A DNA stretch of 15,294 nucleotides from a virus (Duplodnaviria; Heunggongvirae; Uroviricota; Caudoviricetes), in the IMG/VR virus record IMGVR_UViG_2529292718_000014, positions 1 to 15,294 of that record. One strand, given 5' to 3'. The notes beneath the pieces are model-generated. The model had not been told where the DNA came from. It ran no database searches and saw only the letters and a program-made list of their open reading frames with translations. Position 1 is the first letter of the stretch; the number at the start of each line of letters is the position of its first letter. The translations under genes were made by a program, and so were the position numbers. Positions 1,419-14,305 of the stretch are shown in pieces.

Positions 1419-3383
1419 TTAAAAATCAGCCTGACTCGGGATCAGTTTTTGCCAGATAGCTGAAATGTATTTTGCCTGGTAACGAGCGTCATCAAGTGCA
1501 TTATGGCGCTCACCTTCGAATGGAATAGCCGTTCTGGCATCGAAGTCCAGGGCTTTTCCTAATTCAACGATTGTGCGTACATCGCGATCGTTGCAGTAGC
1601 GCCACGGGCAGGGGATCCCCTGTCGTTCGTATGAGCGGCGTAAAATCACGTTGTCGAAGTTGTCTCCATTTCCCCAGACCTGAACAAAAAATTCACCGGA
1701 GTTTTCGTCGATAAATTCCCGCAATTGCAGTAGTGCATCATCTAACGGGATTTCATCGGTCATAATGGCAGACTGCGCTTCACGTGATTGCTTCAGCCAC
1801 CATTTAATGACGTCACGATCAATGACTCCGCCAGCAGTATCCAGATCGATGGTCTTGCTAAATTCCGGTCCCATATCTCCGGTTTGTGGATCGAAAAATA
1901 TTGCGCCTATTGAGATAATCGGGGCATCGGGATTTTTTCCCATGGTTTCAAGGTCGATCATCAGATGAATCCCCGCTCTGCTGGTGGATGTGAGATTATG
2001 ATGACCGTTCGCCTTAATTAAGAGATCTGTCGCCTCGCCAGTTTCATTATCGCTGGCGTGGTCCTGAGCGCTGCCAGCATTCTCCTTGTGTGGATGTTCA
2101 GCGCCTTCCATTTCCTCCGAATCGTCTTCCTGAACTTCAACTTGGTTCTCGTCATCGAATGTTTCCTGGTATGTTGCGTCGCCCATCACCGCGCCACAAT
2201 CAGGGCAGTTGCCGCCACCGCTCTGACCGCAGACGGTGCAGACTTTTTCCGGTTCCTGTTGCGCTACTGGTTCGGATTGTTTCGTTTTTGGCTCTTTTCG
2301 TTGCACATTTGGGCTGTTTTGTTCCGCTTTCTGGTCGTTCTGTTCCGTTTCTTGCTGGTTCTGGTTCACAGAATCGCGGGTTTCAATCCCCTTCACCCAT
2401 TTCGGATCATTCGGATCGCTAATCCCTGCAACAAATTCACCACGTGATACTGCAAGCAGTTCATCGGCGTCAGGCTGGCTGATATTGGCTGCCTGCATAA
2501 TTTTGTTTACTTCGTCAGCGGTAACTTTTACCGGCTCTGGTTGTGCGGTCGTGTCAGATGCACCAGTATTTTGTTGTAAACCTGAGTATGTACCGTTTTT
2601 GCGGGCGAAATATTCTTCTTTCGTGATTTCAGTAGCCCCGGCAGCCAGCGCCTTATCCAGACCAGAAAGTTTGTTTGCGCGACCGTATTTTTCGCCATCC
2701 TTGTCGGTGAAGAGGAAGTAGAACGGCCCCTCACGTTCTACAGATGGTTCGACTTCCACTTTGCATTCGGTTTTTTCGTTGTCCGGAATTGCCGTTTCCA
2801 CTGCATCAGTTTCTGGTACTGGCGACGAGAGAGTATCAGTTGCGCTCTGATTTGTTCCTTCATCTTCAAACACGCCCTTTGTAGTCAGGTATTCAGTAAT
2901 GTATTTGTTCAGTGCCACAGGGTCTTTGTGAATGTCGATCGGACGTTCACGGACAAGGCCAAAAATAGTCTGGCGGTCGTAGCGAAGGGCATCAGGCTGT
3001 TTGCGCATTGATGCCGAGATACGCTTCCAGTCTTCGCGGTCGTTGTCGATAACTTCATTTTTTGCCCAGCGATGGATGCTGCCGTCAATGTTTCCGGCAT
3101 CCACATCACCAGGCCAGAGAGCGTAGGCCAGTTCGTCATCCAGTGTTTTCCATGTCTGCTTGTATTCGCGATGAATGGCAGCAATGACCGGGTTGATATT
3201 TTCCTGCTGAGTTTTCAGTGTGCTGTCGGTTGACTCTGGCGCGGGCGAGATCAACAGCAGACGTGTATTTTCCGGTTTCCTTGCGTTCACCTTCGCGACG
3301 TTTTTTCCAGATGCGCATCTCTGCCTGAATTTCGGGCCATTTAGCTCCAGGCTTACATTTATGCTTAACCCACCCGATGGCAT
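1419..3383 (-). CDS. DEDDh-type 3'-5' exonuclease domain protein with Cys-rich zinc-ribbon-like motif (654-aa ORF; probably the C-terminal part of a larger disrupted gene, reminiscent of DLP12 exoD)
   Basis: C-terminal region has DnaQ-like motifs: MIDLETMG (Exo I D-x-E), a later acidic motif, and HNALDDARYQ (Exo III H-x4-D). CTVCGQSGGGNCPDCG suggests a zinc ribbon. The N-terminal 248 nt overlap another protein-like frame (3136-3654), implying a frameshift. The resemblance to exoD is from memory and its position next to xis, not a search. Confidence 0.72.
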   Translation of the reverse strand: MPSGGLSINVSLELNGPKFRQRCASGKNVAKVNARKPENTRLLLISPAPESTDSTLKTQQENINPVIAAIHREYKQTWKTLDDELAYALWPGDVDAGNIDGSIHRWAKNEVIDNDREDWKRISASMRKQPDALRYDRQTIFGLVRERPIDIHKDPVALNKYITEYLTTKGVFEDEGTNQSATDTLSSPVPETDAVETAIPDNEKTECKVEVEPSVEREGPFYFLFTDKDGEKYGRANKLSGLDKALAAGATEITKEEYFARKNGTYSGLQQNTGASDTTAQPEPVKVTADEVNKIMQAANISQPDADELLAVSRGEFVAGISDPNDPKWVKGIETRDSVNQNQQETEQNDQKAEQNSPNVQRKEPKTKQSEPVAQQEPEKVCTVCGQSGGGNCPDCGAVMGDATYQETFDDENQVEVQEDDSEEMEGAEHPHKENAGSAQDHASDNETGEATDLLIKANGHHNLTSTSRAGIHLMIDLETMGKNPDAPIISIGAIFFDPQTGDMGPEFSKTIDLDTAGGVIDRDVIKWWLKQSREAQSAIMTDEIPLDDALLQLREFIDENSGEFFVQVWGNGDNFDNVILRRSYERQGIPCPWRYCNDRDVRTIVELGKALDFDARTAIPFEGERHNALDDARYQAKYISAIWQKLIPSQADF

Positions 3384-3895
3384 GCAGCTTAAGCTCCGGA
3401 TACATAGCGTTAACTTCTGGCATTTTCATCAACGCTTCAACGATATGGCCGTCGAATGTTGCCATGTCTTCCTGCAACAATTCCTGTGCGCTAATCACCA
3501 TATCAACAGTGATGTTTTCACATGTGTCGAACTTAACCATGACAGCGTTCTGTACTTCAGGGGCTAGGTTGTCAAAAGTGACGTTCATCGGATCGGATTC
3601 AGTCTCGACCGGGACAAAGGAAGCAGACGCCTCATCCCAGCGGTTTTCCTGCATATATTCAGCATCCCAGGAATCGAGGGCAGGGCGGGGTATACCGGGT
3701 TTATCCTCGCAAACAAGAAATTTATAAGCGCAGTCCTGAGCAGCCGGATAATGTTCCAGGAATTGCCAGTGAAATTTTGCGCGGGCGCGACGTTCATCAC
3801 CGGCTTCAATGGCAGTGGCTACAGTGACGGCACCTTCTTCCTTTATTGCCTGTTCGTCCGGAATGGCGGCGCAAATAAAGACTGATCTTACCCAG
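3136..3895 (-). pseudogene. Upstream protein-like reading frame of the exonuclease locus, lacking a start codon for its first ~80 codons; likely a disrupted 5' portion of the same gene
   Basis: The frame of the 172-aa ORF (3136-3654) stays open and protein-like upstream to a TAG near 3895 (…AIKEEGAVTVATAIEAGDERRARAKFHWQFLEHYPAAQDCAYKFLVCEDKPG…), with no ATG/GTG/TTG before the Met at 3654. It overlaps the 654-aa ORF by 248 nt in another frame. A T6/A6 run lies at 3301-3306. Confidence 0.45.
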
Positions 3896-3986: not shown

Positions 3987-4178
3987 TTAAAGACCTGCCG
4001 GGATTTCGTTATTATCCTGGTGAATAACTTTATCGACCGGGTAACAGTTACCGGGAATTTTCTGTTCGGTTGCTGCAGTCATACATTCCTGCATTGTCCT
4101 GTGAACACTGACTGCAATATCAACTGACTCTCCGGAAACAAGATAAACTGTCAGAACAAGCGCAAATGCTGAATTCAT
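3987..4178 (-). CDS. Small hypothetical protein (63 aa) with N-terminal signal-peptide-like or transmembrane segment
   Basis: MNSAFALVLTVYLVSGESV… has a hydrophobic N-terminus followed by a polar domain with two Cys. Its ATG overlaps the stop of the upstream ORF in an ATGA arrangement, suggesting translational coupling. The ORF track's longer 81-aa start is less likely. Confidence 0.45.
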   Translation of the reverse strand: MNSAFALVLTVYLVSGESVDIAVSVHRTMQECMTAATEQKIPGNCYPVDKVIHQDNNEIPAGL

Positions 4179-4363
4179 TGTGCACATTCTTTTGGCATCA
4201 GACGTAAACGAGCCAGCATTGAAACAATGCATATTTTATTTAATAGCTCCCGTTCTTGTTTTCTCTTGTTAATGGCATCTTCAGTAAATACTGGGTTACT
4301 GATAGTGACACCAATTTCAAAACAACCTTCAGACGTATTAACGTTTGGTAATAACGTTTCCAT
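4175..4363 (-). CDS. Small hypothetical protein (62 aa from the METLL start; ORF track extends to 4468)
   Basis: Protein-like translation METLLPNVNTSEGCFEIGVTISNPVFTEDAINKRKQERELLNKICIVSMLARLRLMPKECAQ. The N-terminal extension in the ORF track runs through an inverted-repeat motif (4418-4440) and reads poorly. Coupled to the downstream small ORF. Confidence 0.4.
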   Translation of the reverse strand: METLLPNVNTSEGCFEIGVTISNPVFTEDAINKRKQERELLNKICIVSMLARLRLMPKECAQ

Positions 4364-4921
4364 TATCGCGTCCTCAACAATGAATTTTGTGATGCGGTGC
4401 CTAGTGCCTCCAGGTGACGTTAACCAGTTAACAATTAACGCCGGATACAGAGAACCCACCCATAACACTGTTTTTGGTTTTAACTGTTCCGCGTGCGCTT
4501 AGCCGCATTCACCGCATCACAAAATTCACTTTAAAAAGGGCGGCAGAGCAGTCACGGAGTAAAACTGATACCGCTAAACGCCACCAGAAAATTGATAACA
4601 GAGGGCGTTGCAGCGGGGTTGTCACTTAAGCGTATGGTCAACCTGACAACCCGGTGTCCTCAACGGGGAAGGAATAACCCCGCCATACTTACCGCCGCGC
4701 CATTTCGCGGATTGCCACAACCGGAAGCGCACGGTCGAATTAAATTTAACGACACCGTACAGACAGAATAACTTCGCCGTGCGCTTTCGCGTTATGTCCT
4801 GACTTTTCAGGGATATATCCTTCCAGTAAACTGCCAGTGCCGGATGCTCACCCGTGTCCGGCGCACGCACTCCACCTGACCCGTGGAGAACTCCTTAATT
4901 ACCAACCCTCAGGAGGGTGAA

Positions 4922-5143
4922 ATGACTAGTAAAAATGTAAATATCCAGTTTAACCACGATGTTTCTCCTGCTGGACTTGCGGATGAGCTCACTGCTATAA
5001 AAACGGCAATTATGCTACTTGCTGCTAAGTTGCCTGCGTCATCAAAGCCAGCGGAAATTTGTGACTCATTGCGTAAGATGAATTCAACAAAATGCAATGA
5101 GATGGCATCACTTATTGAAAGTGCAATTGATTTTAATGATTAA
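4922..5143 (+). CDS. Hypothetical small protein (73 aa)
   Basis: ATG at 4922 preceded by AGGAGG at 4911-4916; the upstream extension in the ORF track is unlikely. It is the only plus-strand ORF in a leftward block, and its 3' end overlaps the convergent ORF 5133-5507 by 11 nt. Confidence 0.5.
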   Translation: MTSKNVNIQFNHDVSPAGLADELTAIKTAIMLLAAKLPASSKPAEICDSLRKMNSTKCNEMASLIESAIDFND

Positions 5144-5507
5144 TCGAAATTTCATGGCTAACTGTAACACTCCCATCTGTGGCGGGATGGTTTAAATCGC
5201 TGGGATTAATGCCGCACTCAGTAAAATGGTTCTTAAGGGGTTCTATCCGAATCCCTTTCTTTTTCATTAACAAGCCAAACCCCTTATCAATGATATCCAT
5301 TAATTCCAGGAGGTATTTTTCATGTAAATCCTGGTTATCAGAGAGCTGCTTCTCTTCGTACAGACCGATAAAGGCACGACGCACGTTACCGGATATAGTA
5401 TCGATGGTTTCTTTTTCTACGGTACTCAGGTCAAGAGTCGCCAGTTGGGAACGAACTATATTCGCTGCCATTTCCTGGAATTGCATTGGTAAATCTTTAA
5501 ATTCCAT
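5133..5507 (-). CDS. Hypothetical protein (124 aa)
   Basis: Clean ORF with protein-like composition in the leftward early operon. No family recognised. Confidence 0.6.
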   Translation of the reverse strand: MEFKDLPMQFQEMAANIVRSQLATLDLSTVEKETIDTISGNVRRAFIGLYEEKQLSDNQDLHEKYLLELMDIIDKGFGLLMKKKGIRIEPLKNHFTECGINPSDLNHPATDGSVTVSHEISINH

Positions 5508-5529
5508 TATTAGCCTCGTTGGTTAGCTA

Positions 5530-5748
5530 TTAACGTGGGTATGTAATCATTCTGGCAATGCTTAATGCCGCTGCTTTTTCCAAATTGGTGATATCCTGCT
5601 CCAGAGCGGACAGATTTTCAGCCTGCTTAGCCTTGGCTTCATTGGCCCATTTCAGGTCCTGCGCGGCCTTAATTTTCTGGCGCATCCACTCATAAAGCTC
5701 ATCATCGGTATAGTCTGGCGCGATGATGACGGGTTCTCGTTTCTGCAT
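5530..5748 (-). CDS. Hypothetical small protein (72 aa), predicted helical/coiled-coil
   Basis: ORF in the leftward operon. The segment KIKAAQDLKWANEAKAKQAENLSALEQDITNLEKAA is heptad-like. Confidence 0.55.
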   Translation of the reverse strand: MQKREPVIIAPDYTDDELYEWMRQKIKAAQDLKWANEAKAKQAENLSALEQDITNLEKAAALSIARMITYPR

Positions 5749-5777
5749 ACTGATTCCTCGCGGTGCTGTTTCGCTTA

Positions 5778-5906
5778 TCAGCCGTTAGATTTTGCCGAGC
5801 TGGAAAGCGCCCGTTTAAATTCGCTGAAGCTGAGAGCTTCTTCGCCTTCGGCAAGGCCTTCGAAGTATTCTTCGTAAGCCTTTTCCATGATTGTGTCGAA
5901 ATCCAT
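5778..5906 (-). CDS. Small acidic ORF (42 aa), not in the supplied ORF track
   Basis: Found by manual translation: MDFDTIMEKAYEEYFEGLAEGEEALSFSEFKRALSSSAKSNG. The ATG lies 1 nt after the stop of the upstream 78-aa ORF, with GGTGAG just upstream. Confidence 0.3.
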   Translation of the reverse strand: MDFDTIMEKAYEEYFEGLAEGEEALSFSEFKRALSSSAKSNG

Positions 5907-5907
5907 A

Positions 5908-6144
5908 TCACTCACCTGAGTTTCTTTCCAGCCAGCGACGGGCACCATTTTCGGTTTTAAACGTTTTGCTTTTGGTATACGTCATCGCGGTGAACGTACC
6001 GTCCTGGTTGGGGAACACGCCACATACCAGAGATTCGCTGTTGCCAAGATCGATAGTATCCATGCTGACCTCATTTCCCCTTAACGCCGGGGTAGCGGAA
6101 CAAAAACCTGCTGCATAGTTATTAAAGTTGAACCCTGCCGTCAT
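5908..6144 (-). CDS. Hypothetical protein (78 aa; alternative start at internal MDTIDLG), first gene of the leftward early operon
   Basis: ORF immediately downstream (leftward) of the OL-like operator region. Not recognisably N-like: no arginine-rich N-terminus. Confidence 0.5.
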   Translation of the reverse strand: MTAGFNFNNYAAGFCSATPALRGNEVSMDTIDLGNSESLVCGVFPNQDGTFTAMTYTKSKTFKTENGARRWLERNSGE

Positions 6145-6240
6145 GTTCTTACGCCTCGGGCTGGCTACTTAACCCCTGACCACTGCTTGGTAACTCGAAG
6201 TATTGCCCTGCATTCTGTGGGGCGGGGTGGGTGGTAGGCA

Positions 6241-6290
6241 TATAATGTACTTTGCGTTCATTGTTGTAAAGTACTTTTAGTACATTTTGT
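6241..6290. promoter_or_regulatory. OL/pL-like operator-promoter region with ATGTACT / AGTACT / AGTACAT repeats
   Basis: ATGTACT at 6245-6251, palindromic AGTACT at 6270-6275, and inverted copy AGTACAT at 6279-6285. Located between the repressor gene end and the leftward early genes. The same heptamer recurs in the cI-cro intergenic region. Confidence 0.45.
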
Positions 6291-6360
6291 GTGTAAAAAA
6301 ATGAGATGGGATAAAGTGAAGCACAAACCCGGAGGAAGGCGCTACCGGATTTATGCTGGT

Positions 6361-6780
6361 TTAAGAGGCTTTTTGTTTTTTCTTTCGTGCTAACTCTTCG
6401 TAAATTGCATTGTACTTCTGTTTTTTCTCTTCAAGAGTTTTTAAAAGTTCATCTGTCTCACTGTCAGGGAGCTCGTCCAGAAGGTCAATGATGATTTTTT
6501 GTCTTGGATTTAACTCCTGATAGAAACGTACCTGTCCACTTTCTTCTGTATCCTCTCCCAAAAGATAGGTTGGTGTTGTTCCTATTAGTGTTGCTAATTC
6601 CCTTAATTTCTCCCGGCGAGGAATTGTTTCGCCATTAAACCATTTGCTAACCGCTTTTGGTGTTAATTTCATTCGACGGGCAATTTCTGCCTGCCTTCCA
6701 TGTTGTTCATAACCAGCGTTTTCACAGGCTAGCGCAAGCCTACTGGCGAACTCTTTACGCGCTTTATCTTCATGAACCAT
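6361..6780 (-). CDS. Prophage repressor, XRE-family HTH (cI-like), 139 aa, without a recognisable S24/LexA-type autocleavage domain
   Basis: N-terminal HTH-like segment (…QAEIARRMKLTPKAVSKWFNGETIPRREKLRELATLIGTTPTYLLG…) with a charged helical C-terminus. Divergent from the Cro-like gene, with shared operator repeats between them. No Ala-Gly/Ser…Lys peptidase motifs seen. Confidence 0.82.
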   Translation of the reverse strand: MVHEDKARKEFASRLALACENAGYEQHGRQAEIARRMKLTPKAVSKWFNGETIPRREKLRELATLIGTTPTYLLGEDTEESGQVRFYQELNPRQKIIIDLLDELPDSETDELLKTLEEKKQKYNAIYEELARKKKQKAS

Positions 6781-6859
6781 AAGTTCAATGATATTCGCTC
6801 TTGAATGTACTGTCAGTTCTGTTATGGCATGTACTCAAAGTTCACATTGTGAGGGTGAT
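6781..6859. promoter_or_regulatory. OR-like divergent promoter/operator region (pRM/pR analogue)
   Basis: Intergenic between the divergent repressor and Cro-like genes. Two direct ATGTACT copies at 6805-6811 and 6829-6835. GAGGGTG Shine-Dalgarno precedes the cro-like ATG at 6860. Confidence 0.45.
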
Positions 6860-7114
6860 ATGAACCAGAAAACACTTGAAGATGTAATCAAAACTGTTCG
6901 CGTTGCTGTTGTGGCCGACGTTTGTGGTGTCAGCCAAAGAGCAATCTATAAATGGATGGATAACGGAAAATTGCCTCGCACAGAATATACCGGCGAAACA
7001 AATTACGCTGAAAAAATCGCTCTTGCATCAAACGGATTATTTTCTGCCGATGCAATTTTAACTATTGGCAGGAATAAAACTACTACGAAAAAGCTGATGG
7101 GAGTTGATTCATGA
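6860..7114 (+). CDS. Cro-like HTH regulator (84 aa from the ATG at 6860)
   Basis: Segment VADVCGVSQRAIYKWMDNGKLP is HTH-like. It is the first rightward gene, divergent from the repressor. The ORF-track start at 6788 would sit inside the operator region. Confidence 0.7.
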   Translation: MNQKTLEDVIKTVRVAVVADVCGVSQRAIYKWMDNGKLPRTEYTGETNYAEKIALASNGLFSADAILTIGRNKTTTKKLMGVDS

Positions 7115-7536
7115 AAATCAAGCATGAACACATCCGCATGGCGATGAATGCCTGGGCGCATCCGGACGGCGAAAAAGTACCGGCTGCGAAAATTACCAAA
7201 GCGTATTTCGAGCTGGGAATGACGTTCCCGGAACTGTATGACGACAGCCATCCGGAAGCCCTGGCTCGCAATACTCAGAAAATTTTCCGCTGGGTGGAGA
7301 AAGACACCCCTGATGCGGTTAAAAAAATTCAGGCGTTGTTACCAGCTATCGAAAAAGCAATGCCACCTCTGCTGGTGGCCCGAATGCGCAGTCATAGCTC
7401 AGCGTATTTTCGGGAACTAGTGGAGACGCGGGAACGACTGGTGAGAGACGCTGATGATTTTGTCGCAGTGGCGATCGCTGGTTTCAACCAGATGAATCGT
7501 GGTGGCCCTGCAGGAAATATTGTGGCTGTGCATTGA
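7111..7536 (+). CDS. CII/YdaT-like early regulatory protein (141 aa)
   Basis: Start overlaps the Cro-like stop (ATGA-type coupling). Position immediately after cro matches cII/YdaT-type genes of lambdoid and Rac-like prophages. Family assignment is by recollection only. Confidence 0.55.
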   Translation: MKIKHEHIRMAMNAWAHPDGEKVPAAKITKAYFELGMTFPELYDDSHPEALARNTQKIFRWVEKDTPDAVKKIQALLPAIEKAMPPLLVARMRSHSSAYFRELVETRERLVRDADDFVAVAIAGFNQMNRGGPAGNIVAVH

Positions 7537-9174: not shown

Positions 9175-9189
9175 GCAATTGTGTAGACG

Positions 9190-9480
9190 CGTTGACGGCC
9201 GAAAGCATAGGAGGGTTGATTGATCGTTCTAGTTATGCTGTCAGAGCGAAAGCGCAGGAACTGGGTATCAATAGGATGTTAAGAGGGGGGGTTATAACCA
9301 ATCAAAAAAACATCCGCAAAGCGATATTGAGCTAGTGCGGAAGCTTCATCAGTGTGGAGTTCCCCGCCGTGATATCGCTGTAAAACGCGAAATGTCCTTG
9401 GGCATGATTAATCAGTACGTTTATTTCGACAGGAGAGCGCATGAAGTTTGACATCTAGACAACTGGGGGAGCGCTGAAAA
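9190..9480 (+). pseudogene. Decayed coding remnants (HTH-like peptide fragments in two frames) with a G7 homopolymer
   Basis: Short protein-like stretches interrupted by stops: …SSYAVRAKAQELGINRMLRGG… and …VRKLHQCGVPRRDIAVKREMSLGMINQYVYFDRR…. G7 run at 9285-9291. No intact ORF of 60 aa or more. Confidence 0.3.
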
Positions 9481-9599
9481 CGTTCTTAATTGATGTTGGA
9501 TTCGCTTTACATACTGAACTGTTTGGCTGAAAGACACGGTAGTATCACCAATCAAGGTGCTTTTGATAAACGCTTGTGTGTTTGTTTTTTAATCCATTG

Positions 9600-9628
9600 T
9601 TGACAACTAGGTTAGTTTTCCATATCAT
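9600..9628 (+). promoter_or_regulatory. Near-consensus sigma70 promoter for the ParA-like gene
   Basis: -35 TTGACA at 9600-9605, 17-nt spacer, -10 TATCAT at 9623-9628. The ATG at 9659 follows about 30 nt downstream, with GGTGG ahead of it. Confidence 0.55.
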
Positions 9629-9658
9629 CAATAAAAGTGTAAAACTAATGGTGGCGAT

Positions 9659-10705
9659 ATGACTAGTGAATCAAATGTTAATGCTCTGATAGAGCGTCAA
9701 TTCGAAGTTGCTGACGGTAATGTAAGAAGTCTTAATTTGCCGAAATATGATAAATATACAGTATGTAATTTACGGGGAGGCATTGGTAAGACATCTTTAA
9801 CTTTTAATCTGTCATATTTGGCGGATAACGCATTAATCGTGGATACGTGCCCGCAAGGAAATTTATCATATTTTTTTGACAATAATTATGCATCTTCGTC
9901 TAGCACAACTGCAAATGACCTCTTAATGCCTTATTTTGTTCCAGGGCTTGGATTTGCAACGCGTGCTGCAAAGCTAGTATCATCAACTAATGCTTGGTTT
10001 GCGGGCAAGAATAACTATTTTATTCAATCTGATAGTCAACTTTATCTTCTACCTACGCAAATGGCGAATGCTCTGGCTCAAGCCAGAACAATTTCTGGGG
10101 CTACTCAGCAGGTTGTTATTGATACAATTCTTTTTTCTCTGAAGAAAGAAATAGCCAGAGAAATGGTTGAAACTGGTACTACAAAAGCGTTAATTGATAC
10201 ATCACCTTTTTTCTCTGGAGCGACGCATTTATCTTGGCATGCAACAGATGCTTTAATAGTTCCAGTGAGGACAGATCAGCAATCGATTAATTCATTAAGA
10301 TTACTTATTGATACTCTGACTAAACCAACATCAGAATTTAGAAAGATAATGCCGTCTGATGGCCATACACCAAAAATTCAGATGGTGGTTATTACCCATT
10401 GCGGATGGTCAACAGTGGCAGGAGCAAGGAATAAACCAAATCAACAGACAAAAATGTACATCGAAGCTGTAAGAGAGGTAATTCGACAAAATATTAGTAA
10501 TTTTACAACAGATGATCCTAATAATCACATTGTGATTCTTGATGATTTTCTGGGTAGTGGCAGAATGTCAAGTGCTAAGTCTAAACCATTAGAGTTGTTA
10601 AATCCAGGAGATGCAATGACTGTGAATAGAGTTAGGACATCCGTGAATTTATCTGTTAACAAAATAAAAAATGAATTAAAGTTCATTCACAACTCCATAT
10701 GGTAA
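9659..10705 (+). CDS. Orphan ParA/MinD-family P-loop ATPase (348 aa) with variant deviant Walker A
   Basis: NLRGGIGKTS matches the deviant Walker A KGGxGK[ST], with Arg in place of the signature Lys. DTCPQGNLS matches the ParA D-x-D-P-Q-G-N motif. LIDTSP is a Walker B-like motif and ALIVPVRTDQQSINSLRLL a ParA-like segment. C-terminal extension of about 100 aa. The region is visibly AT-rich by eye. No ParB-like gene is adjacent. Confidence 0.8.
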   Translation: MTSESNVNALIERQFEVADGNVRSLNLPKYDKYTVCNLRGGIGKTSLTFNLSYLADNALIVDTCPQGNLSYFFDNNYASSSSTTANDLLMPYFVPGLGFATRAAKLVSSTNAWFAGKNNYFIQSDSQLYLLPTQMANALAQARTISGATQQVVIDTILFSLKKEIAREMVETGTTKALIDTSPFFSGATHLSWHATDALIVPVRTDQQSINSLRLLIDTLTKPTSEFRKIMPSDGHTPKIQMVVITHCGWSTVAGARNKPNQQTKMYIEAVREVIRQNISNFTTDDPNNHIVILDDFLGSGRMSSAKSKPLELLNPGDAMTVNRVRTSVNLSVNKIKNELKFIHNSIW

Positions 10706-10862
10706 ATGACATTTTATTTGAATAATCTGGATTGATAATTATTGTTACATTAATTGTTATTAATTCTAAATAATCCTATCGTTCTTCAGGATGAGATAAT
10801 TTATATTTATTTGTGTTGTGATTTTTTGAATTTATTTAGGTTTATGAACTGTTTTAGATGAA

Positions 10863-10982
10863 ATGAATCATGAATACGAAATTGTTGCGGTACTGATAAC
10901 GAGGAAAGACCTCTGCGAGGTACGAATCCGAACCGGCCAGACGGAGGTCGCTGTCTTCACAGCTTACGAACCTGAGGAGTAA
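10863..10982 (+). other. GC-rich element: candidate 39-aa small ORF or 5' part of a structured small RNA
   Basis: ATG at 10863 to TAA at 10980-10982 encodes MNHEYEIVAVLITRKDLCEVRIRTGQTEVAVFTAYEPEE with a weak Shine-Dalgarno. The segment is much GC-richer than its AT-rich flanks. It is followed by a perfect 8-bp hairpin with GAAA loop (10991-11010) and the terminator at 11050-11072. Confidence 0.3.
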
Positions 10983-11049
10983 GAGACCAGGCGAGGGAGA
11001 AATCCCTCGCCACCTCTGATGTGTCAGGCATCCTCAACGCACCCGCACT

Positions 11050-11072
11050 TAACCCGCTTCGGCGGGTTTTTT
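11050..11072 (+). terminator. Rho-independent terminator (copy A of an identical 23-bp element)
   Basis: TAACCCGCTTCGGCGGGTTTTTT: 6-bp GC stem ACCCGC/GCGGGT, UUCG loop, T6 tract. An identical 23-mer occurs at 12885-12907. Confidence 0.7.
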
Positions 11073-11073
11073 A

Positions 11074-11120
11074 TTGGTTGACAAAATTATGAATATGCAC
11101 CAATATCTTGGTTGACAAAA
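11074..11120 (+). promoter_or_regulatory. Two direct TTGGTTGACAAAA repeats (34 bp apart) upstream of the cassette; candidate promoter -35 elements and/or operator
   Basis: 13-bp perfect repeats at 11074-11086 and 11108-11120, each containing TTGACA. The -10 matches at 17-bp spacing are weak (CAATAT, GGATTA), so an operator role is also plausible. Confidence 0.4.
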
Positions 11121-11155
11121 GTCGTTTTTTGCACGGATTAGGCGGAGAAGTGTCT

Positions 11156-11749
11156 ATGCAGAACCATCCATTCCCTTGGGAGTTCTTTCCTGAGTTAACA
11201 GAGGTGCGTTTAACCATTATAGCTGAGGAGTTGCTCAGGATACAGGATATTACTCATGAGTTATTGTCATCGCCCTATGATGATAATTACACTCGTGGTG
11301 GTTGTACATTTGGGCGTCAGCGGCAGGCGTTGCTACAAATGTGCGTACGAAAGACATATGACTGGTTAAGACTACTTAATCCTGGCATGGATCTTACGTT
11401 TTCAATTGGGAATGTCCCTATTCGTTTCTTTACTGATGACGCAGATAACCCCAAGAAACGCGGTTTTTTCAAAAGAAATGATGCTGATCGACTCTTTGAG
11501 TCAGAGGAGACTACTCCAACTATGCATCGCTTTGTGGTTGAAAAGCCTGAATTTGAAGGCGAGGGTGGTAGAGTCATTTTTAATGGCTATAACGTGTTTG
11601 GTGAGATCGTGTCAACTTGGACATATGGTGCGGACCGTGTTGTTATGCTGAACTCTGTCGATGATGTACCTCCAGCACCGGTACCTATCGAACTAGAACC
11701 TATCAGTGCGTCTAAGACTGAGAAGGAAAAGAAACAAAATAGCAAATAG
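11156..11749 (+). CDS. Hypothetical protein (197 aa), first gene of the accessory cassette
   Basis: ATG at 11156 with GGAG 8 nt upstream; the TTG start in the ORF track lies inside the upstream repeat and is unlikely. Protein-like composition with an acidic, Pro-rich C-terminal tail. No recognisable catalytic motif or family. Confidence 0.7.
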   Translation: MQNHPFPWEFFPELTEVRLTIIAEELLRIQDITHELLSSPYDDNYTRGGCTFGRQRQALLQMCVRKTYDWLRLLNPGMDLTFSIGNVPIRFFTDDADNPKKRGFFKRNDADRLFESEETTPTMHRFVVEKPEFEGEGGRVIFNGYNVFGEIVSTWTYGADRVVMLNSVDDVPPAPVPIELEPISASKTEKEKKQNSK

Positions 11750-11759
11750 TGGGTGAAAT

Positions 11760-12881
11760 GTGTTTAACGGTACTAATTTAAGACTTGCTCGTCTGTATCA
11801 CGAGCTATCTCTGGAGCAGGTTGCTGAGAAGGTTGAAAAAACACGCCAGTATGTACAGCGACTGGAGTCTGGTTCAGCTACTCCATCCCCAGAGCTTATA
11901 AATAAATTAGCCGAGGTTTTGCGCGTGAAGCCCGCCTTTTTCGAAGGGCAGGAACATTCTCCTGTTAATGAAGAGATTGTACATTTTCGTAAACGCGCCT
12001 CGACAAGGATGTCAACGAAGCTATCAACACTCGCTAAGGCTGAGTTTTATCGTCGTTTTATTGATGTATTTGAAGATAACCTTAATTTGTCACCTGTTCG
12101 ATTTCCTGAATTTCGTGTCCATACACAAGAAGATATCGAGCGAGCGGCAGAAAAATGTCGTATTGAGTGGGGCTTAGGCTTTGGCCCAATTGAAAATATG
12201 ACTCGCCTTGCCGAGAAACTTGGGGCGTTTGTTACTTCATTTGACTCCGTTTCGGATGAAGTAGATGCACTGTCTGTTCCTCTACGAAGGCCTTTTATTG
12301 TTCGAAATACAGCTAAAAATTCACCTTGTAGGCAACGCTTTGATATTGCTCATGAGGTTGCCCATTTGATTCTTCATGAAGGAATTTCTACTGGGGATAG
12401 ATTAACTGAATCCCAGGCAAACCGTTTTGCCTCTGCTCTGTTGCTTCCCAGAACGTCGATGGCGAAATATTTTCCAAGACCTGTGGGGGGGAGGATAAAT
12501 TGGCAGGGACTAAGCCAATTTAAGTTGACATGGAAAGTAAGTAAGGCTGCCATTGTTTACAGGGCTCATCAATTAGGACTTTTGACTGATGAGCAGTACA
12601 GAACTGCATTTATGGGGTTGAAACGGAAAGGGGAAGCTATTGATGAAAAAGAAGATTATCTAATCCCTCATGAGCGTCCTGAGTTATTCCGTCGGGCTTT
12701 ATCGTTTTTATTTGAAGAGTTAGGATACGACCCACAGCGTATAGCTGATGAAATGGATATAGAAGTGGACATTTTTTATGAGTTAGTAGGAGATGATCTT
12801 CCTGCGGTTCATGAACTGCCAGGAAGTGGTGATGTTGTTTCACTACAATCTTACCGAACTCTTAGAGGCAAAATTCACTAG
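11760..12881 (+). CDS. XRE-family HTH fused to ImmA/IrrE-type (COG2856, M78-like) zinc metallopeptidase domain, 373 aa
   Basis: N-terminal HTH (LRLARLYHELSLEQVAEKVEKTRQYVQRLESG). Central HEXXH motif in RQRFDIAHEVAHLILHEG, followed by a downstream acidic region typical of ImmA/IrrE proteins. Starts 10 nt after the 197-aa gene, so likely co-transcribed. Followed by terminator copy B. Confidence 0.85.
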   Translation: MFNGTNLRLARLYHELSLEQVAEKVEKTRQYVQRLESGSATPSPELINKLAEVLRVKPAFFEGQEHSPVNEEIVHFRKRASTRMSTKLSTLAKAEFYRRFIDVFEDNLNLSPVRFPEFRVHTQEDIERAAEKCRIEWGLGFGPIENMTRLAEKLGAFVTSFDSVSDEVDALSVPLRRPFIVRNTAKNSPCRQRFDIAHEVAHLILHEGISTGDRLTESQANRFASALLLPRTSMAKYFPRPVGGRINWQGLSQFKLTWKVSKAAIVYRAHQLGLLTDEQYRTAFMGLKRKGEAIDEKEDYLIPHERPELFRRALSFLFEELGYDPQRIADEMDIEVDIFYELVGDDLPAVHELPGSGDVVSLQSYRTLRGKIH

Positions 12882-12884
12882 GCA

Positions 12885-12907
12885 TAACCCGCTTCGGCGG
12901 GTTTTTT
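12885..12907 (+). terminator. Rho-independent terminator (copy B, identical 23-mer)
   Basis: TAACCCGCTTCGGCGGGTTTTTT, identical to 11050-11072. Begins 4 nt after the stop of the HTH-peptidase gene. Confidence 0.7.
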
Positions 12908-12982
12908 GTTTTACGTATTCTGGTTTACAATCTACAGGCCAGCCTGAACAACTGGCACCTGCTGCGCCAGCAGAGAAAACCG

Positions 12983-13255
12983 ATGGCGCACGATACCAAA
13001 CATCACAATTCTGATACTGCCCTTGCCAGCTGGTGCGGGCGGCGTTTTCATGCATTCAAATCTGACTGGTACCAGCATGCCCCATGCACTGAAGAACAGG
13101 CCGAATGGCTGATTCAGAACTACCGCAGGCGTGGGTACGACTTTCAGAAAGACCTCGGCCCTGACTTCCGACACTGGATAATTTCTGTCAGGCTCCCTTA
13201 TTCCGAACGCCCACCGCGTCCGTCCCGCACATTCCAGCAACGCATCTGGAGGTAA
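12983..13255 (+). CDS. Hypothetical nin-region protein (90 aa)
   Basis: ORF whose stop (13253-13255) lies 1 nt before the GTG of the next gene, suggesting coupling. The C-terminus is Pro/Arg-rich and reads poorly, so the call is uncertain. Confidence 0.45.
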   Translation: MAHDTKHHNSDTALASWCGRRFHAFKSDWYQHAPCTEEQAEWLIQNYRRRGYDFQKDLGPDFRHWIISVRLPYSERPPRPSRTFQQRIWR

Positions 13256-13256
13256 C

Positions 13257-13691
13257 GTGCGGGTATTACTTCGACCTGTTCTGGTACCGGAACTCGGGCT
13301 GGTTGTCGTTAAGCCAGGTCGTGAATCCATGCAGGTATTCCATAACGGCAGGGTACTGGTGGAGCCGGAACCGAAAAGCATGCGTAATCTGCCGTCCGGG
13401 GTCGTTCCTGCCGTTCGCCAGCCGCTGGCGGAGGACAAAACATTGCTGCCGTTTTTCAGTAACGCACGGGTAATTCGTGCTGCTGGTGGTGCTGGTGCAT
13501 TGTCTGACTGGCTGTTGCGCCATATTAAATCCTGCCAGTGGCCACACGGCGATTATCATCACAGCGAAACCGTTATTCACCGATATGGTACCGGCGCAAT
13601 GGTGTTGTGCTGGCACTGCGACAACCAGCTGCGTGACCAGACATCCGAATCACTCGAGCAACTGCTCATCAAAACCTGTCAGCATGGATGA
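13257..13691 (+). CDS. Hypothetical nin-region protein with Cys/His cluster (144 aa; GTG start, or internal Met)
   Basis: GGAGG 5 nt upstream of the GTG at 13257. Motif C-x-W-P-H-G-D-Y-H-H…C-W-H-C-D suggests metal binding. Its stop overlaps the next ATG (ATGA). Confidence 0.55.
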   Translation: MRVLLRPVLVPELGLVVVKPGRESMQVFHNGRVLVEPEPKSMRNLPSGVVPAVRQPLAEDKTLLPFFSNARVIRAAGGAGALSDWLLRHIKSCQWPHGDYHHSETVIHRYGTGAMVLCWHCDNQLRDQTSESLEQLLIKTCQHG

Positions 13692-14305
13692 TTGACGTCA
13701 TCGGTCACGCAATAAGCGGTACGCAGGAGCGTGAATTATCTCTGGCTGAATTATCCTGGTGGGCGGTCCGCAATCAGCTGGCGGACGCGCTACCGGAAGC
13801 GGTATTACGTCGCTCGCTGGGATTACCAGCGGAAAAAATCTGCTCGGTGTACCGCGAAAGCGACATCGTACCGGGAGAGCAGACCGCCACCAGCATATTG
13901 AAACAGCGCACAAAAAATCTTGCACCGTTGCCTCACGCCCACCAGCAACAAAACCCATCACAGGAAAAGACGGTGGTAAGCATCACCGTTGATCCAGAGT
14001 CTCCGGAATCTTTCATGAAGCTGCCTAAACGTCACCGGTGGGTTAAGGAGAAATACACACGCTGGGTTAAGACACAGCCGTGTGCTTGCTGCGGTATGCC
14101 AGCCGACGATCCGCATCATCTGATTGGTCACGGGCAGGGCGGAATGGGAACCAAAGCACATGATCTCTTTGTTTTGCCTTTGTGCAGAAAGCATCACGAC
14201 GAGTTGCATACGGATACCGTGGCATTTGAAGAGAAGTATGGCTCCCAACTGGAGCTGATTTTTCGATTTATCGATCGCGCGCTGGCAATTGGTGTGCTGG
14301 CCTAA
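13688..14305 (+). CDS. nin-region protein with HNH/zinc-finger-like motif (205 aa), possibly NinG/Rap-like
   Basis: Motif [18 protein letters not shown]…[10 protein letters not shown] has a CxxC…HH…C…HH pattern. Position just upstream of Q matches the lambdoid nin region. Family name is by recollection. Confidence 0.65.

Follow-up and report, generated by a model that had tools for sequence, protein, structure and literature searches.

A Short DicA/Gifsy-Class Lysogeny Repressor of an Escherichia coli Prophage and Its RosmerTA Peptidase Neighbour

Results

A prophage region of 15,294 nucleotides (the whole of the analysed stretch, IMG/VR record IMGVR_UViG_2529292718_000014, called the window below) encodes a 139-residue protein. 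It is a typical representative of a known class: short prophage repressors that do not cleave themselves, such as Qin DicA and the repressors of the Gifsy prophages. Taken as a whole, our reading is that this is probably a Qin/Rac-type lysogeny repressor of the DicA/Gifsy class, operating a switch that is blind to the SOS response, and that the peptidase RmrA encoded nearby is an incidental neighbour. An earlier, sequence-only reading had offered two routes of induction, another anti-repressor or a peptidase acting in trans. The first is documented for the class (DicA with Rem; the Gifsy repressors GfoR/GtgR with GfoA/GftA); the second found no support.

The repressor

The ORF at 6361 to 6780 on the minus strand is no chance ORF; it is the gene of a genuine and very common E. 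coli prophage repressor. The exact protein (RefSeq entry WP_000233320.1) was found in 32,452 indexed blocks of an assembly collection, and in the LF82/Tritos lysogen the transcript of the repressor gene was reported at 24-fold over background (PMC9928086). Using Pfam, BLASTP and an AlphaFold2 model, we assigned the product as a CI-type lysogeny repressor of the DicA/GtgR class. The Pfam matches were HTH_3 (residues 29–73, E 1.8e-9) and HTH_31 (E 9.1e-7) and nothing else; the HTH is of the XRE/CI type, and the earlier description of a cI-like repressor holds. The model (mean pLDDT 80.6) places the HTH helices at residues 2–74, in a five-helix fold. The HTH domain (residues 1–75; 6556–6780) is followed by a disordered linker (residues 76–91; 6508–6555), within which residues 78–86 have a pLDDT <50, and by a two-helix tail of the DicA type (residues 92–139; 6364–6507); the stop codon is at 6361–6363. 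In the model the tail is a hairpin of helices 92–103 and 106–138, in agreement with the charged helical tail that had been read from the letters. A Foldseek search against the PDB gave no solved homologue of the tail and only generic XRE-HTH matches, the DNA-binding domains of ImmR and DdrO being among the fold matches of the repressor. In the same search, kinship with SinR/SinI came down to an architectural resemblance.

Peptidase_S24 (PF00717) was absent from the 139-residue repressor, even when the Pfam threshold was relaxed to E ≤ 0.1. Since the same precomputed Pfam annotation marks PF00717 in relatives of 235–240 residues with a shared N-terminal domain, we regard this absence as real, and the profile search left the claim that the domain is missing intact. 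Alignment with the S24 relatives revealed that the repressor is without the Ala-Gly site, the serine of GDSM and the lysine of KRLQ, all three of which the relatives have. Because there is no S24 domain, RecA-stimulated autocleavage of the repressor is not expected, as the sequence-only reading had anticipated.

Class membership and the tail module

The repressor has four features of the class: an XRE HTH, a length of the ∼135–150 residues typical of it with no S24 domain, Ala-Gly site or Ser-Lys dyad, the tail motif, and a position in the immunity region, divergent from a cro analogue, with repeated operators on its flanks and a left operon of the kil/dicB type. Its best NCBIfam match was the DicA subfamily (NF007257), at 56.8 bits against a cut-off of 101 bits. 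The score being under the cut-off, the protein is a relative of DicA, neither DicA itself nor an orthologue.

The tail is homologous to the tails of DicA and GtgR. A search with the tail only retrieved 40 representative clusters out of 1.84 billion; the homologues are always C-terminal, in proteins of 120–216 residues with diverse HTH N-termini and no S24 domain. On the other side of the junction, aligned homology to S24-type CI proteins stops at the linker, after YLLG(D/E). The DicA-type tail is in this way delimited as a shuffled C-terminal module that has no Pfam model.

Inactivation in the DicA/GtgR class proceeds through small antirepressors (Rem, GfoA/GftA) or by stochastic switching. 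The Gifsy repressors lose their activity through antirepressors, some of them acting in trans, and not through cleavage; DicA and RacR have been named in the same group. Rem relieves repression by DicA, which can also flip spontaneously, with neither RecA nor Rem. Mitomycin C does not affect PaaR2, whose switch is bistable (PMC8630535).

The immunity region

A Cro-like regulator of the YdaS type (84 residues; 6860 to 7114, plus strand; PHROG 35, E 6.8e-14; HTH_17; RefSeq CDS) is divergent from the repressor, and the two genes are always co-inherited. It is followed on the same strand by a YdaT-type CII analogue (7111 to 7536; Pfam YdaT_toxin, E 1.1e-9; PHROG 163 "CII-like", E 3.5e-45); YdaT is functionally analogous to CII (PMC8630535). 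On the minus strand, Pfam (DUF1391, DicB) and Rfam identified a leftward operon of the Qin type, predicted to be under control of the repressor (4175 to 6144). It comprises a ydfA-like DUF1391 gene (5908–6063/6144), a ydfB-like gene (5778–5906), a ydfC-like gene (5530–5748), the DicF sRNA (4538–4589; Rfam, 68.6 bits) and dicB (4175–4363), in the gene order of Qin of K-12.

The motif ATGWAC-N5-GTWCAT occurs nine times in comparison with 2.2 expected matches, a count reached in 0 of 200 shuffles, and five of the nine matches lie in two regions flanking the repressor gene. Motif, repeats and a promoter scan define a putative OR of three 17-bp operators (6772–6788, 6805–6821 and 6829–6845; 6772 to 6845 overall) between the divergent repressor and cro genes, with a leftward promoter-like site within it at 6816–6788. 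A putative OL (6245 to 6285), defined in the same way, consists of two operators, 6245–6261, with perfect palindrome arms, and 6269–6285. It overlaps a leftward promoter-like site at 6270–6242 serving the ydfABC-dicF-dicB operon. The enrichment of the motif predicts that the 139-residue repressor binds these operators. Operator-like matches within rmrA (11968, 12265 and 12796) are at chance level.

We propose that the repressor works as two modules, a CI-type HTH (residues 1–75) and a DicA-type tail of ∼50 residues that would occupy the place of an S24 domain, with the disordered linker between them. Dimerised or oligomerised through the tail, the repressor may bind five 17-bp ATGTAC-N5-GTTCAT operators, two in OL and three in OR, and would so silence the leftward ydfABC-dicF-dicB-exo-xis-int operon and the rightward cro-ydaT-replication operon. 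Because the repressor has no S24 domain and the prophage no LexA box, the switch would be blind to the SOS response. For the derepression step, analogy with the class suggests two routes: stochastic flipping of a bistable repressor/Cro switch, or a small antirepressor protein akin to Rem/GfoA that would come from outside the window, perhaps from another prophage, none having been recognised within it.

Search for antirepressors and SOS control

Rem and the gftA candidate of Gifsy-2 had no tblastn match under E 0.3 in the window and 14 related loci. A PHROG scan of small or unassigned genes, run on the window, the closest complete prophage and phage 666R9, hit no antirepressor family. A dedicated antirepressor elsewhere in the prophage, which would have refuted the sequence-only reading, did not appear: neither the window nor its closest complete relative nor phage Tritos yielded a Rem/GftA homologue or a PHROG antirepressor. 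The window contains no perfect LexA box, and matches with one mismatch were at chance level. A stricter 20-mer scan gave none in the window, locus L001 or Tritos and found the control box of Gifsy-2. With LexA box, dinI and gftA homologue all absent and the Gifsy-2 control box recovered, SOS coupling is not expected here.

Phages with DicA/DicC immunity carry rem in a slot between hok and the p1212/ydfU genes. In further copies of the present repressor locus this slot is empty or occupied by other cargo, and the small ORFs of the "empty" slot in loci L006, L011, L012 and L014 are AT-rich junk ORFs only. Immediately upstream of the DUF968 gene the window encodes a conserved nin-region protein of 90 residues (12983 to 13255, plus strand; PHROG 1212), suspected as a Rem equivalent from its position upstream of DUF968/ydfU. 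It has no similarity to Rem, which belongs to PHROG 340, and its homologue coexists with rem in Qin of K-12 (an unannotated ORF, L004:307-585), so it was rejected as an antirepressor. A homologue is also present in Gifsy-2.

An antirepressor of an unrecognised family could still be encoded in cis, outside the window or among its small ORFs, and answer a signal other than LexA. Well-studied members of the class all have a small antirepressor (Rem, GfoA, GftA, GfhA), such proteins diverge fast (Rem was detected only via iterated PSI-BLAST), and small ORFs of unknown function exist in the window at 4883–5143 (plus), 5133–5507 (minus) and 12983–13255 (plus). We nevertheless consider this unlikely. 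Tritos and vB_EcoS-666R9, whose repressors are 99.3–100% identical, have nothing in common, apart from the tail-tip genes, beyond the immunity module, DUF1391, DUF977, hok, a portion of the exonuclease gene and the integrase end. No plausible independently regulated antirepressor is found among them. The rem slot, moreover, is empty in four contexts with the identical repressor.

Tritos is a plaque-forming phage with the identical repressor and a variant of RosmerTA. Its virions are made spontaneously, at 2.8e6 genomes/mL, and trimethoprim reduced their production. The prophages for which induction by ciprofloxacin was reported, in one strain and after 2 hours with the drug, did not include Tritos (PMC9928086).

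Decay of the prophage offers another explanation, in which the repressor does no more than keep dicB, dicF and other toxic genes permanently silent and has kept no mechanism of inactivation. The exonuclease gene of the window is split (1419–3383 and 3136–3654), as is its DUF968 gene (13257–13691 and 13688–14305), the closest complete genome has truncated portal and tail genes, and DicA and RacR serve as such silencers in K-12. However, the identical protein runs the switch of plaque-forming Tritos, so its properties are those of a repressor that functions in a phage, regardless of the condition of the window copy. We find this explanation very unlikely, and it bears on the fate of this prophage more than on mechanism.

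The RosmerTA cassette

Judged from its sequence, the HTH-M78 protein encoded at 11760 to 12881 (plus strand) is RmrA and belongs, as antitoxin, to an anti-phage cassette of the RosmerTA type. In RosmerTA, a toxin–antitoxin system with a defence role, the antitoxin is the ImmA-domain protein RmrA; for other members, neutralisation of the toxicity by RmrA and protection from phages are known. PADLOC model PDLC03943 matched the protein with E 4.3e-201 over residues 1–368 of 370, Pfam gave HTH_3 and Peptidase_M78 (E 8.4e-17), and the translation contains the zinc-peptidase motif HEVAH. The toxin gene rmrT (11156 to 11749, plus strand; PADLOC PDLC03929, E 6.9e-92; PHROG 5786) adjoins rmrA, toxin first, at a distance of 10 bp; its start at 11156 is backed by RefSeq and PADLOC, the longest ORF beginning at 11108. 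Pfam, PADLOC or PHROG scans of ∼20 plausible genes in the window gave RmrA as the sole M78 peptidase. The start of rmrA is 4,980 bp from that of the repressor gene, and replication genes and two terminators lie in between. The earlier statement that the only such peptidase in the window is an HTH-fused one about 5 kb away was therefore accurate. RmrA and the repressor have no BLASTP similarity, and the idea of an HTH common to the two was dropped.

The insertion (11050 to 12910, plus strand) is bounded by 26-bp direct repeats at 11050–11075 and 12885–12910. They read TAACCCGCTTCGGCGGGTTTTTT(A/G)TT, which is the hok terminator in duplicate; locus L012, which encodes the identical repressor, has the empty site with a single copy of the terminator. 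The cassette is a discrete 1.8-kb insertion at the hok terminator within a cargo hotspot, and the hok-ydfU slot is documented as a hotspot for defence cargo with clean insertion boundaries.

Of ten sampled contexts of the identical repressor, a single one has any M78 gene at a distance of up to 10 kb. Other contexts carry GAPS4, AbiH, QueH, TehB-like, Beta_protein or lipoprotein genes, and phage 666R9 has BstA as cargo. Three of four phage genomes with this repressor lack an M78 gene. Among 5426 complete E. coli genomes, 1047 have the immunity region, 23 this RosmerTA cassette and 41 the Tritos-type variant. The same cassette also occurs in prophages with a repressor of the LexA family or of the PaaR2/ParE2 type, and the RmrA of Tritos, whose repressor is 100% identical to that of the window, is only 32% identical. 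The cassette travels independently of the repressor, and their proximity is incidental.

These data bear on the least probable explanation, that RmrA acts like ImmA of ICEBs1, cutting the repressor linker and inducing the prophage either constitutively or when defence is triggered. ImmA-type proteases can cleave HTH repressors, which counts against our main reading. The M78 domain of RmrA is intact, HEVAH included, and the PADLOC models of CapP and CapH match; the linker of the repressor appears exposed in the low-confidence part of the model, and the repressor itself gives a weak CapH match (E 1.2e-5, PADLOC). Furthermore, the cassette sits in the slot used by rem in DicA-type phages, and Tritos also has an RmrA-type gene. 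Against this, RmrA already has an adjacent partner, RmrT, and an HTH of its own that has been proposed in the literature as its substrate or regulatory target. Its gene lies within a terminator-bounded insertion and is inherited separately (23 versus 1047 genomes), the identical repressor lives without an M78 gene in nine of ten contexts, and the cassette accompanies unrelated repressors. In the LF82 lysogen, the M78 gene of Tritos and the gene beside it are expressed as morons while Tritos remains lysogenic, with no reported induction by ciprofloxacin (PMC9928086). The suggestion that the cassette peptidase acts on the repressor in trans is not supported.

A narrower version, which we rate as just as remote, is that where both proteins co-occur, phage-activated RmrA might cut the linker and let the prophage leave a doomed cell. 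If RmrA were to moonlight as an inducer, the position of the cassette in the rem slot would be more than coincidence. As it stands, that position is a coincidence, though one that could be read in favour of a trans-acting RmrA.

Discussion

The repressor type is present in about one-fifth of complete E. coli genomes and controls toxic genes of the dicB/dicF type and working phages such as Tritos; because it is so widespread and has these targets, the trigger of this switch is relevant to how prophages are induced in E. coli from the gut and in pathogenic strains. No new mechanism is opened by the analysis: short non-cleavable repressors, together with the antirepressor route, have been in the literature since 2011, and the peptidase is part of an unrelated defence system that is already named. 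Modestly useful by-products are the DicA-type tail, delimited as a module, and the hok-ydfU slot as a cargo hotspot.

Compared with known RosmerTA systems, the window copy has full-length matches to both PADLOC models, adjacent genes with the toxin first, and an antitoxin with HTH and M78 domains; it is prophage-borne, as is the validated system of Gordonia phage Kita. Nothing notable differs. It represents one of several RmrA subtypes, and its role in defence is predicted by homology.

ImmR/ImmA of ICEBs1, CapH/CapP of CBASS and DdrO/IrrE likewise combine a short HTH repressor, helical in its C-terminal part, and an M78 zinc peptidase in one element. In those pairs the protease gene adjoins the repressor gene and is co-inherited with it. 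The present pair has the M78 domain with HEXXH and neither adjacency or co-transcription nor co-inheritance. Here RmrA has an HTH of its own in the same polypeptide and a toxin as its partner, and it is encoded 5 kb off and inherited independently.

The N-terminal domain of the repressor is 47% identical to that of the S24-type CI of HK022 and 62–72% identical to those of Klebsiella/Raoultella prophages, which is nearer than it is to DicA. S24-type CI repressors have the autocleavage domain at the C terminus; here, a DicA-type tail stands in its stead.

The Gifsy repressors GtgR, GfoR and GfhR (136–138 residues) are as short and non-cleavable as the present one. GtgR of Gifsy-2 has the tail motif LLxLFxxLPxxE in common with it (BLASTP E 1.8e-9), and both prophages offer a lambdoid setting with a RecE-type exonuclease and Q. 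In Gifsy, the antirepressors GftA, GfoA and GfhA are under LexA control, in contrast to this prophage, which has no LexA box, dinI or gftA homologue.

DicA of K-12 (Qin) is of similar size (135 versus 139 residues). Two differences set its locus apart: the Cro partner of the present repressor is YdaS-type, with no similarity to DicC, and RosmerTA occupies the slot in which DicA-type phages carry rem, a gene that is missing here. The proteins are 29% identical over residues 30–137, tail included (BLASTP E 5e-15). Neither has an Ala-Gly site or an S24 domain, and both have the order HTH, linker and tail with LLxLFxxLPxSE...EEKK...Y..L.EEL. DicA also holds the same genomic place, divergent from the cro analogue and upstream of ydfABC-dicF-dicB.

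Domain composition of the repressor

The repressor gene (6361-6780, minus strand) encodes 139 residues. The gene is real. It carries a RefSeq annotation, 32,452 blocks of the assembly collection index the exact protein, and its transcript is 24-fold over the prophage background in a lysogen of E. coli LF82 carrying phage Tritos (PMC9928086). Pfam detected only an XRE-type HTH (HTH_3, residues 29-73, E 1.8e-9; also HTH_31). Peptidase_S24 was not found even when the search was relaxed to E ≤ 0.1, in agreement with the sequence-only reading, which had described a 139-residue repressor without this domain. In an AlphaFold2 model built from 33 family members (mean pLDDT 80.6), residues 2-74 form a five-helix DNA-binding domain, the linker is of low confidence (pLDDT < 50 at residues 78-86), and C-terminal helices span residues 92-103 and 106-138. 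These helices correspond to the "charged helical tail" of that reading.

A conserved tail replaces the S24 domain

The repressor is built of two modules. Residues 1-77 share 62-72% identity with the corresponding domain of PF00717-bearing, 235-240-residue CI-like repressors of Klebsiella/Raoultella prophages, and the N-terminal domain is 47% identical to that of HK022 CI. The homology to the S24-type relatives ends at the linker, after YLLG(D/E). Past this point the relatives have the Ala-Gly site, GDSM and KRLQ of the S24 fold, whereas the repressor has its tail. The high N-terminal identity to S24-bearing repressors, from a comparison of 6556-6780 (residues 1-75) with P0021, P0034 and HK022 CI, therefore indicates that the sensor half was swapped, S24 for a DicA-type tail, while the DNA-binding half stayed nearly unchanged.

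The tail is homologous to those of DicA of Qin (BLASTP 29% over residues 30-137, E 5e-15) and Gifsy-2 GtgR (E 1.8e-9). Searching residues 78-139 (6364-6549) against 1.84 billion cluster representatives at E ≤ 0.001 gave 40 matches, all representative clusters of short HTH proteins. The tail lies at the extreme C-terminus of every full-length match (120-216 residues). The N-terminal domains are highly diverse; the tail itself is conserved (about 45-70% identity), with the consensus LxPRQKILLELFxxLPxSExDELLKxLEEKKxxYDxLxEEL. These properties indicate that the tail is a conserved, shuffled C-terminal module. Its bearers carry HTH families and in none of them S24, and neither a Pfam model nor, in fold searches, a solved homologue matched the tail. 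The helical hairpin of SinR bound by SinI is similar in architecture (1b0n was among the weak fold matches), a resemblance only. The tail would mediate oligomerisation and may be the surface engaged by an antirepressor.

Operator-like sites flank the repressor gene

The 17-bp palindrome ATGWAC-N5-GTWCAT occurs at nine window sites with at most two mismatches, against 2.2 expected; none of 200 shuffled windows reached nine. Five of the nine fall within the two regions flanking the repressor. In the motif search, putative OL sites (6245-6261 and 6269-6285) overlap a leftward promoter-like site, and putative OR sites (6772-6788, 6805-6821 and 6829-6845) lie between repressor and cro. This is a classic OL/OR layout, to which the repressor presumably binds. 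Three further matches with one or two mismatches lie within the peptidase gene rmrA (11968-11984, 12265-12281 and 12796-12812). They are probably meaningless, because the number of sites outside the immunity region (four) is about the chance level (2.2 ± 1.4).

Antirepressor candidates and LexA boxes

No LexA box was found by scanning the window, the closest complete prophage and Tritos; the scan recovered the Gifsy-2 box upstream of dinI as positive control. Among the related loci, only a prophage with an identical repressor (L012) has a good LexA-box-like site, AACTGGATATTTTTACAGTA (L012:3266-3285, 16/20), located where a gene for an N6/N4 DNA methyltransferase begins.

A dedicated antirepressor, which the sequence-only reading had named as evidence against a role of the peptidase, did not emerge: Rem and the Gifsy-2 gftA candidate had no tblastn match in the window or 14 related loci, and no antirepressor family was hit when the other small genes were compared with PHROGs. 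Phages with DicA/DicC immunity carry rem in the order hok-rem-(p1212)-ydfU, p1212 being the PHROG 1212 gene, or hok-rem-irsA, and this slot is the RosmerTA position in the window. The conserved 90-residue ORF at 12983-13255 was rejected as Rem, since its homologue coexists with rem in Qin and also occurs in Gifsy-2. That homologue in K-12 Qin, an intact 92-residue ORF between rem and ydfU (L004:307-585; NC_000913.3 ~1644306-1644584, minus), is 67% identical to the window ORF (PHROG 1212) and is without annotation in the MG1655 record.

An antirepressor hidden in cis in the prophage is unlikely. Apart from tail-tip genes, Tritos and phage 666R9, whose repressors are near-identical, have in common only the immunity module, DUF1391, DUF977, hok, part of the exonuclease and the integrase end. 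We infer that the repressor switch would be SOS-blind, and that derepression may occur by stochastic repressor/Cro flipping or through a small antirepressor acting in trans or belonging to an unrecognised family. Tritos forms plaques and produces virions spontaneously; ciprofloxacin was a strong inducer of Gally and Cyrano, no induction of Tritos is reported, and with trimethoprim Tritos production fell 3.4-fold (PMC9928086).

Prophage layout and distribution

The window covers the left and centre of an E. coli lambdoid prophage of the Qin/Rac type, and its gene order is that of K-12 Qin. The left part holds integrase, excisionase, a RecE-like exonuclease, ydfD, dicB, the DicF sRNA (Rfam 68.6 bits) and ydfC/B/A. 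Next is the repressor; genes for a Cro-like protein and a CII analogue of the YdaT type diverge from it, followed by a replication protein, DUF977, the accessory region, DUF968 and the Q antiterminator. An 86-residue ORF between dicF and ydfC (4883-5143, plus strand; PHROG 7249) runs opposite to the leftward early operon; such reversed small genes are present in other Qin-type copies, not in Rac-type ones.

Simple decay of this prophage copy is a very improbable explanation. Two genes intact in relatives are split in the window, the exonuclease (overlapping ORFs 1419-3383 and 3136-3654; 823 residues in relatives) and DUF968 (13257-13691 and 13688-14305; 349 residues), by frameshifts that reflect either decay or sequencing error. 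A RusA gene, present in the closest genome between DUF968 and Q, is absent. Of 5426 complete E. coli genomes, 1047 have the immunity region (6145-7120) at ≥ 80% coverage. It is also present in isolated phages: in Tritos, with 99.5% DNA identity and a 100% identical repressor, and in vB_EcoS-666R9, 673R7 and 613R10, whose repressor is 99.3% identical.

The peptidase belongs to a separately inherited cassette

As noted from the sequence alone, the window genes include a single M78 peptidase, the HTH fusion encoded at 11760-12881; 4,980 bp separate it from the repressor start. It matches RmrA over its full length (PADLOC E 4.3e-201), and the gene 10 bp upstream matches RmrT (E 6.9e-92). By these matches the two are assigned to RosmerTA, a toxin-antitoxin system for defence in which the antitoxin is a Zn-peptidase with an ImmA domain and, mostly, an N-terminal HTH of its own. 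Two copies of the 26-bp hok terminator TAACCCGCTTCGGCGGGTTTTTT form a direct repeat (11050-11075 and 12885-12910); the L012 prophage has an empty, uninterrupted site with a single copy (L012:6440-6500). The cassette is thus a discrete insertion with a clean footprint.

The slot between DUF977/hok and DUF968 (9175-12980) is a cargo hotspot. Across the window and otherwise similar prophages (L003-L014) it holds RosmerTA (two subtypes), GAPS4, AbiH, BstA, QueH, a TehB-like gene, Beta_protein with P4-cII-like, an FRG-domain gene, a lipoprotein, relBE or rem; 666R9 has BstA, and K-12 Qin has relBE, hokD and rem. Only one of ten distinct contexts encoding the exact repressor has an M78 gene, a Tritos-type rmrA; the others hold GAPS4, AbiH, QueH, the TehB-like gene, Beta_protein, a lipoprotein or nothing. 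In the Tritos lysogen the M78 gene and its neighbour are expressed as morons (PMC9928086). Of the 5426 genomes, 1047 have the immunity region, 23 the window's cassette and 41 the Tritos variant. At 99.8-99.9% identity, the window's cassette also occurs in prophages with a LexA-family repressor (locus L016) or a PaaR2-PaaA2-ParE2-type repressor (L017). The two RmrA proteins found together with the identical repressor share only 32% identity. Repressor and peptidase are therefore inherited independently, in both directions. Sequence comparison found no similarity of RmrA to the repressor.

That RmrA acts on the repressor, as had been proposed, is not supported, given its RosmerTA partner gene, the discrete insertion and the two-way independent inheritance; with all comparative evidence running contrary, cleavage by RmrA is very improbable.

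An orphan ParA/AAA_31-like ATPase without a ParB partner (9659-10705, 348 residues, PHROG 164) has a near-consensus promoter-like site (9600-9628, 11/12) and a hok remnant downstream (10881-10982). It accompanies the cassette in L017, not in L016, and could be defence-related.

Comparison with known switches

Adjacent genes and co-inheritance are among the features that define an ImmR/ImmA-type pair, and on testing the repressor and RmrA showed neither. PaaR2, without a peptidase motif, is unresponsive to mitomycin C and forms a bistable switch with YdaS/YdaT (PMC8630535). DicA has no Ala-Gly bond; Rem derepresses it 165-fold, about 1% of cells switch spontaneously, independently of RecA and Rem, and the switch responds to urea and heat via DicC (bioRxiv 10.1101/2023.04.14.536235). 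Gifsy repressors remain uncleaved and are inactivated by LexA-controlled antirepressors, which can also act on the repressors of other prophages; most E. coli genomes reportedly encode homologues, and DicA and RacR are named as members (PMC3121763). Existing knowledge resolves the puzzle of the short repressor, apart from the identity of the inducer. The repressor differs from DicA itself in its score (DicA is the best NCBIfam subfamily, at 56.8 bits under the 101-bit cut-off), its Cro partner and its lack of rem. In each defining feature that was tested it agrees with the DicA/Gifsy class, a group of short lambdoid repressors that are not cleavable, and it appears to work like them.
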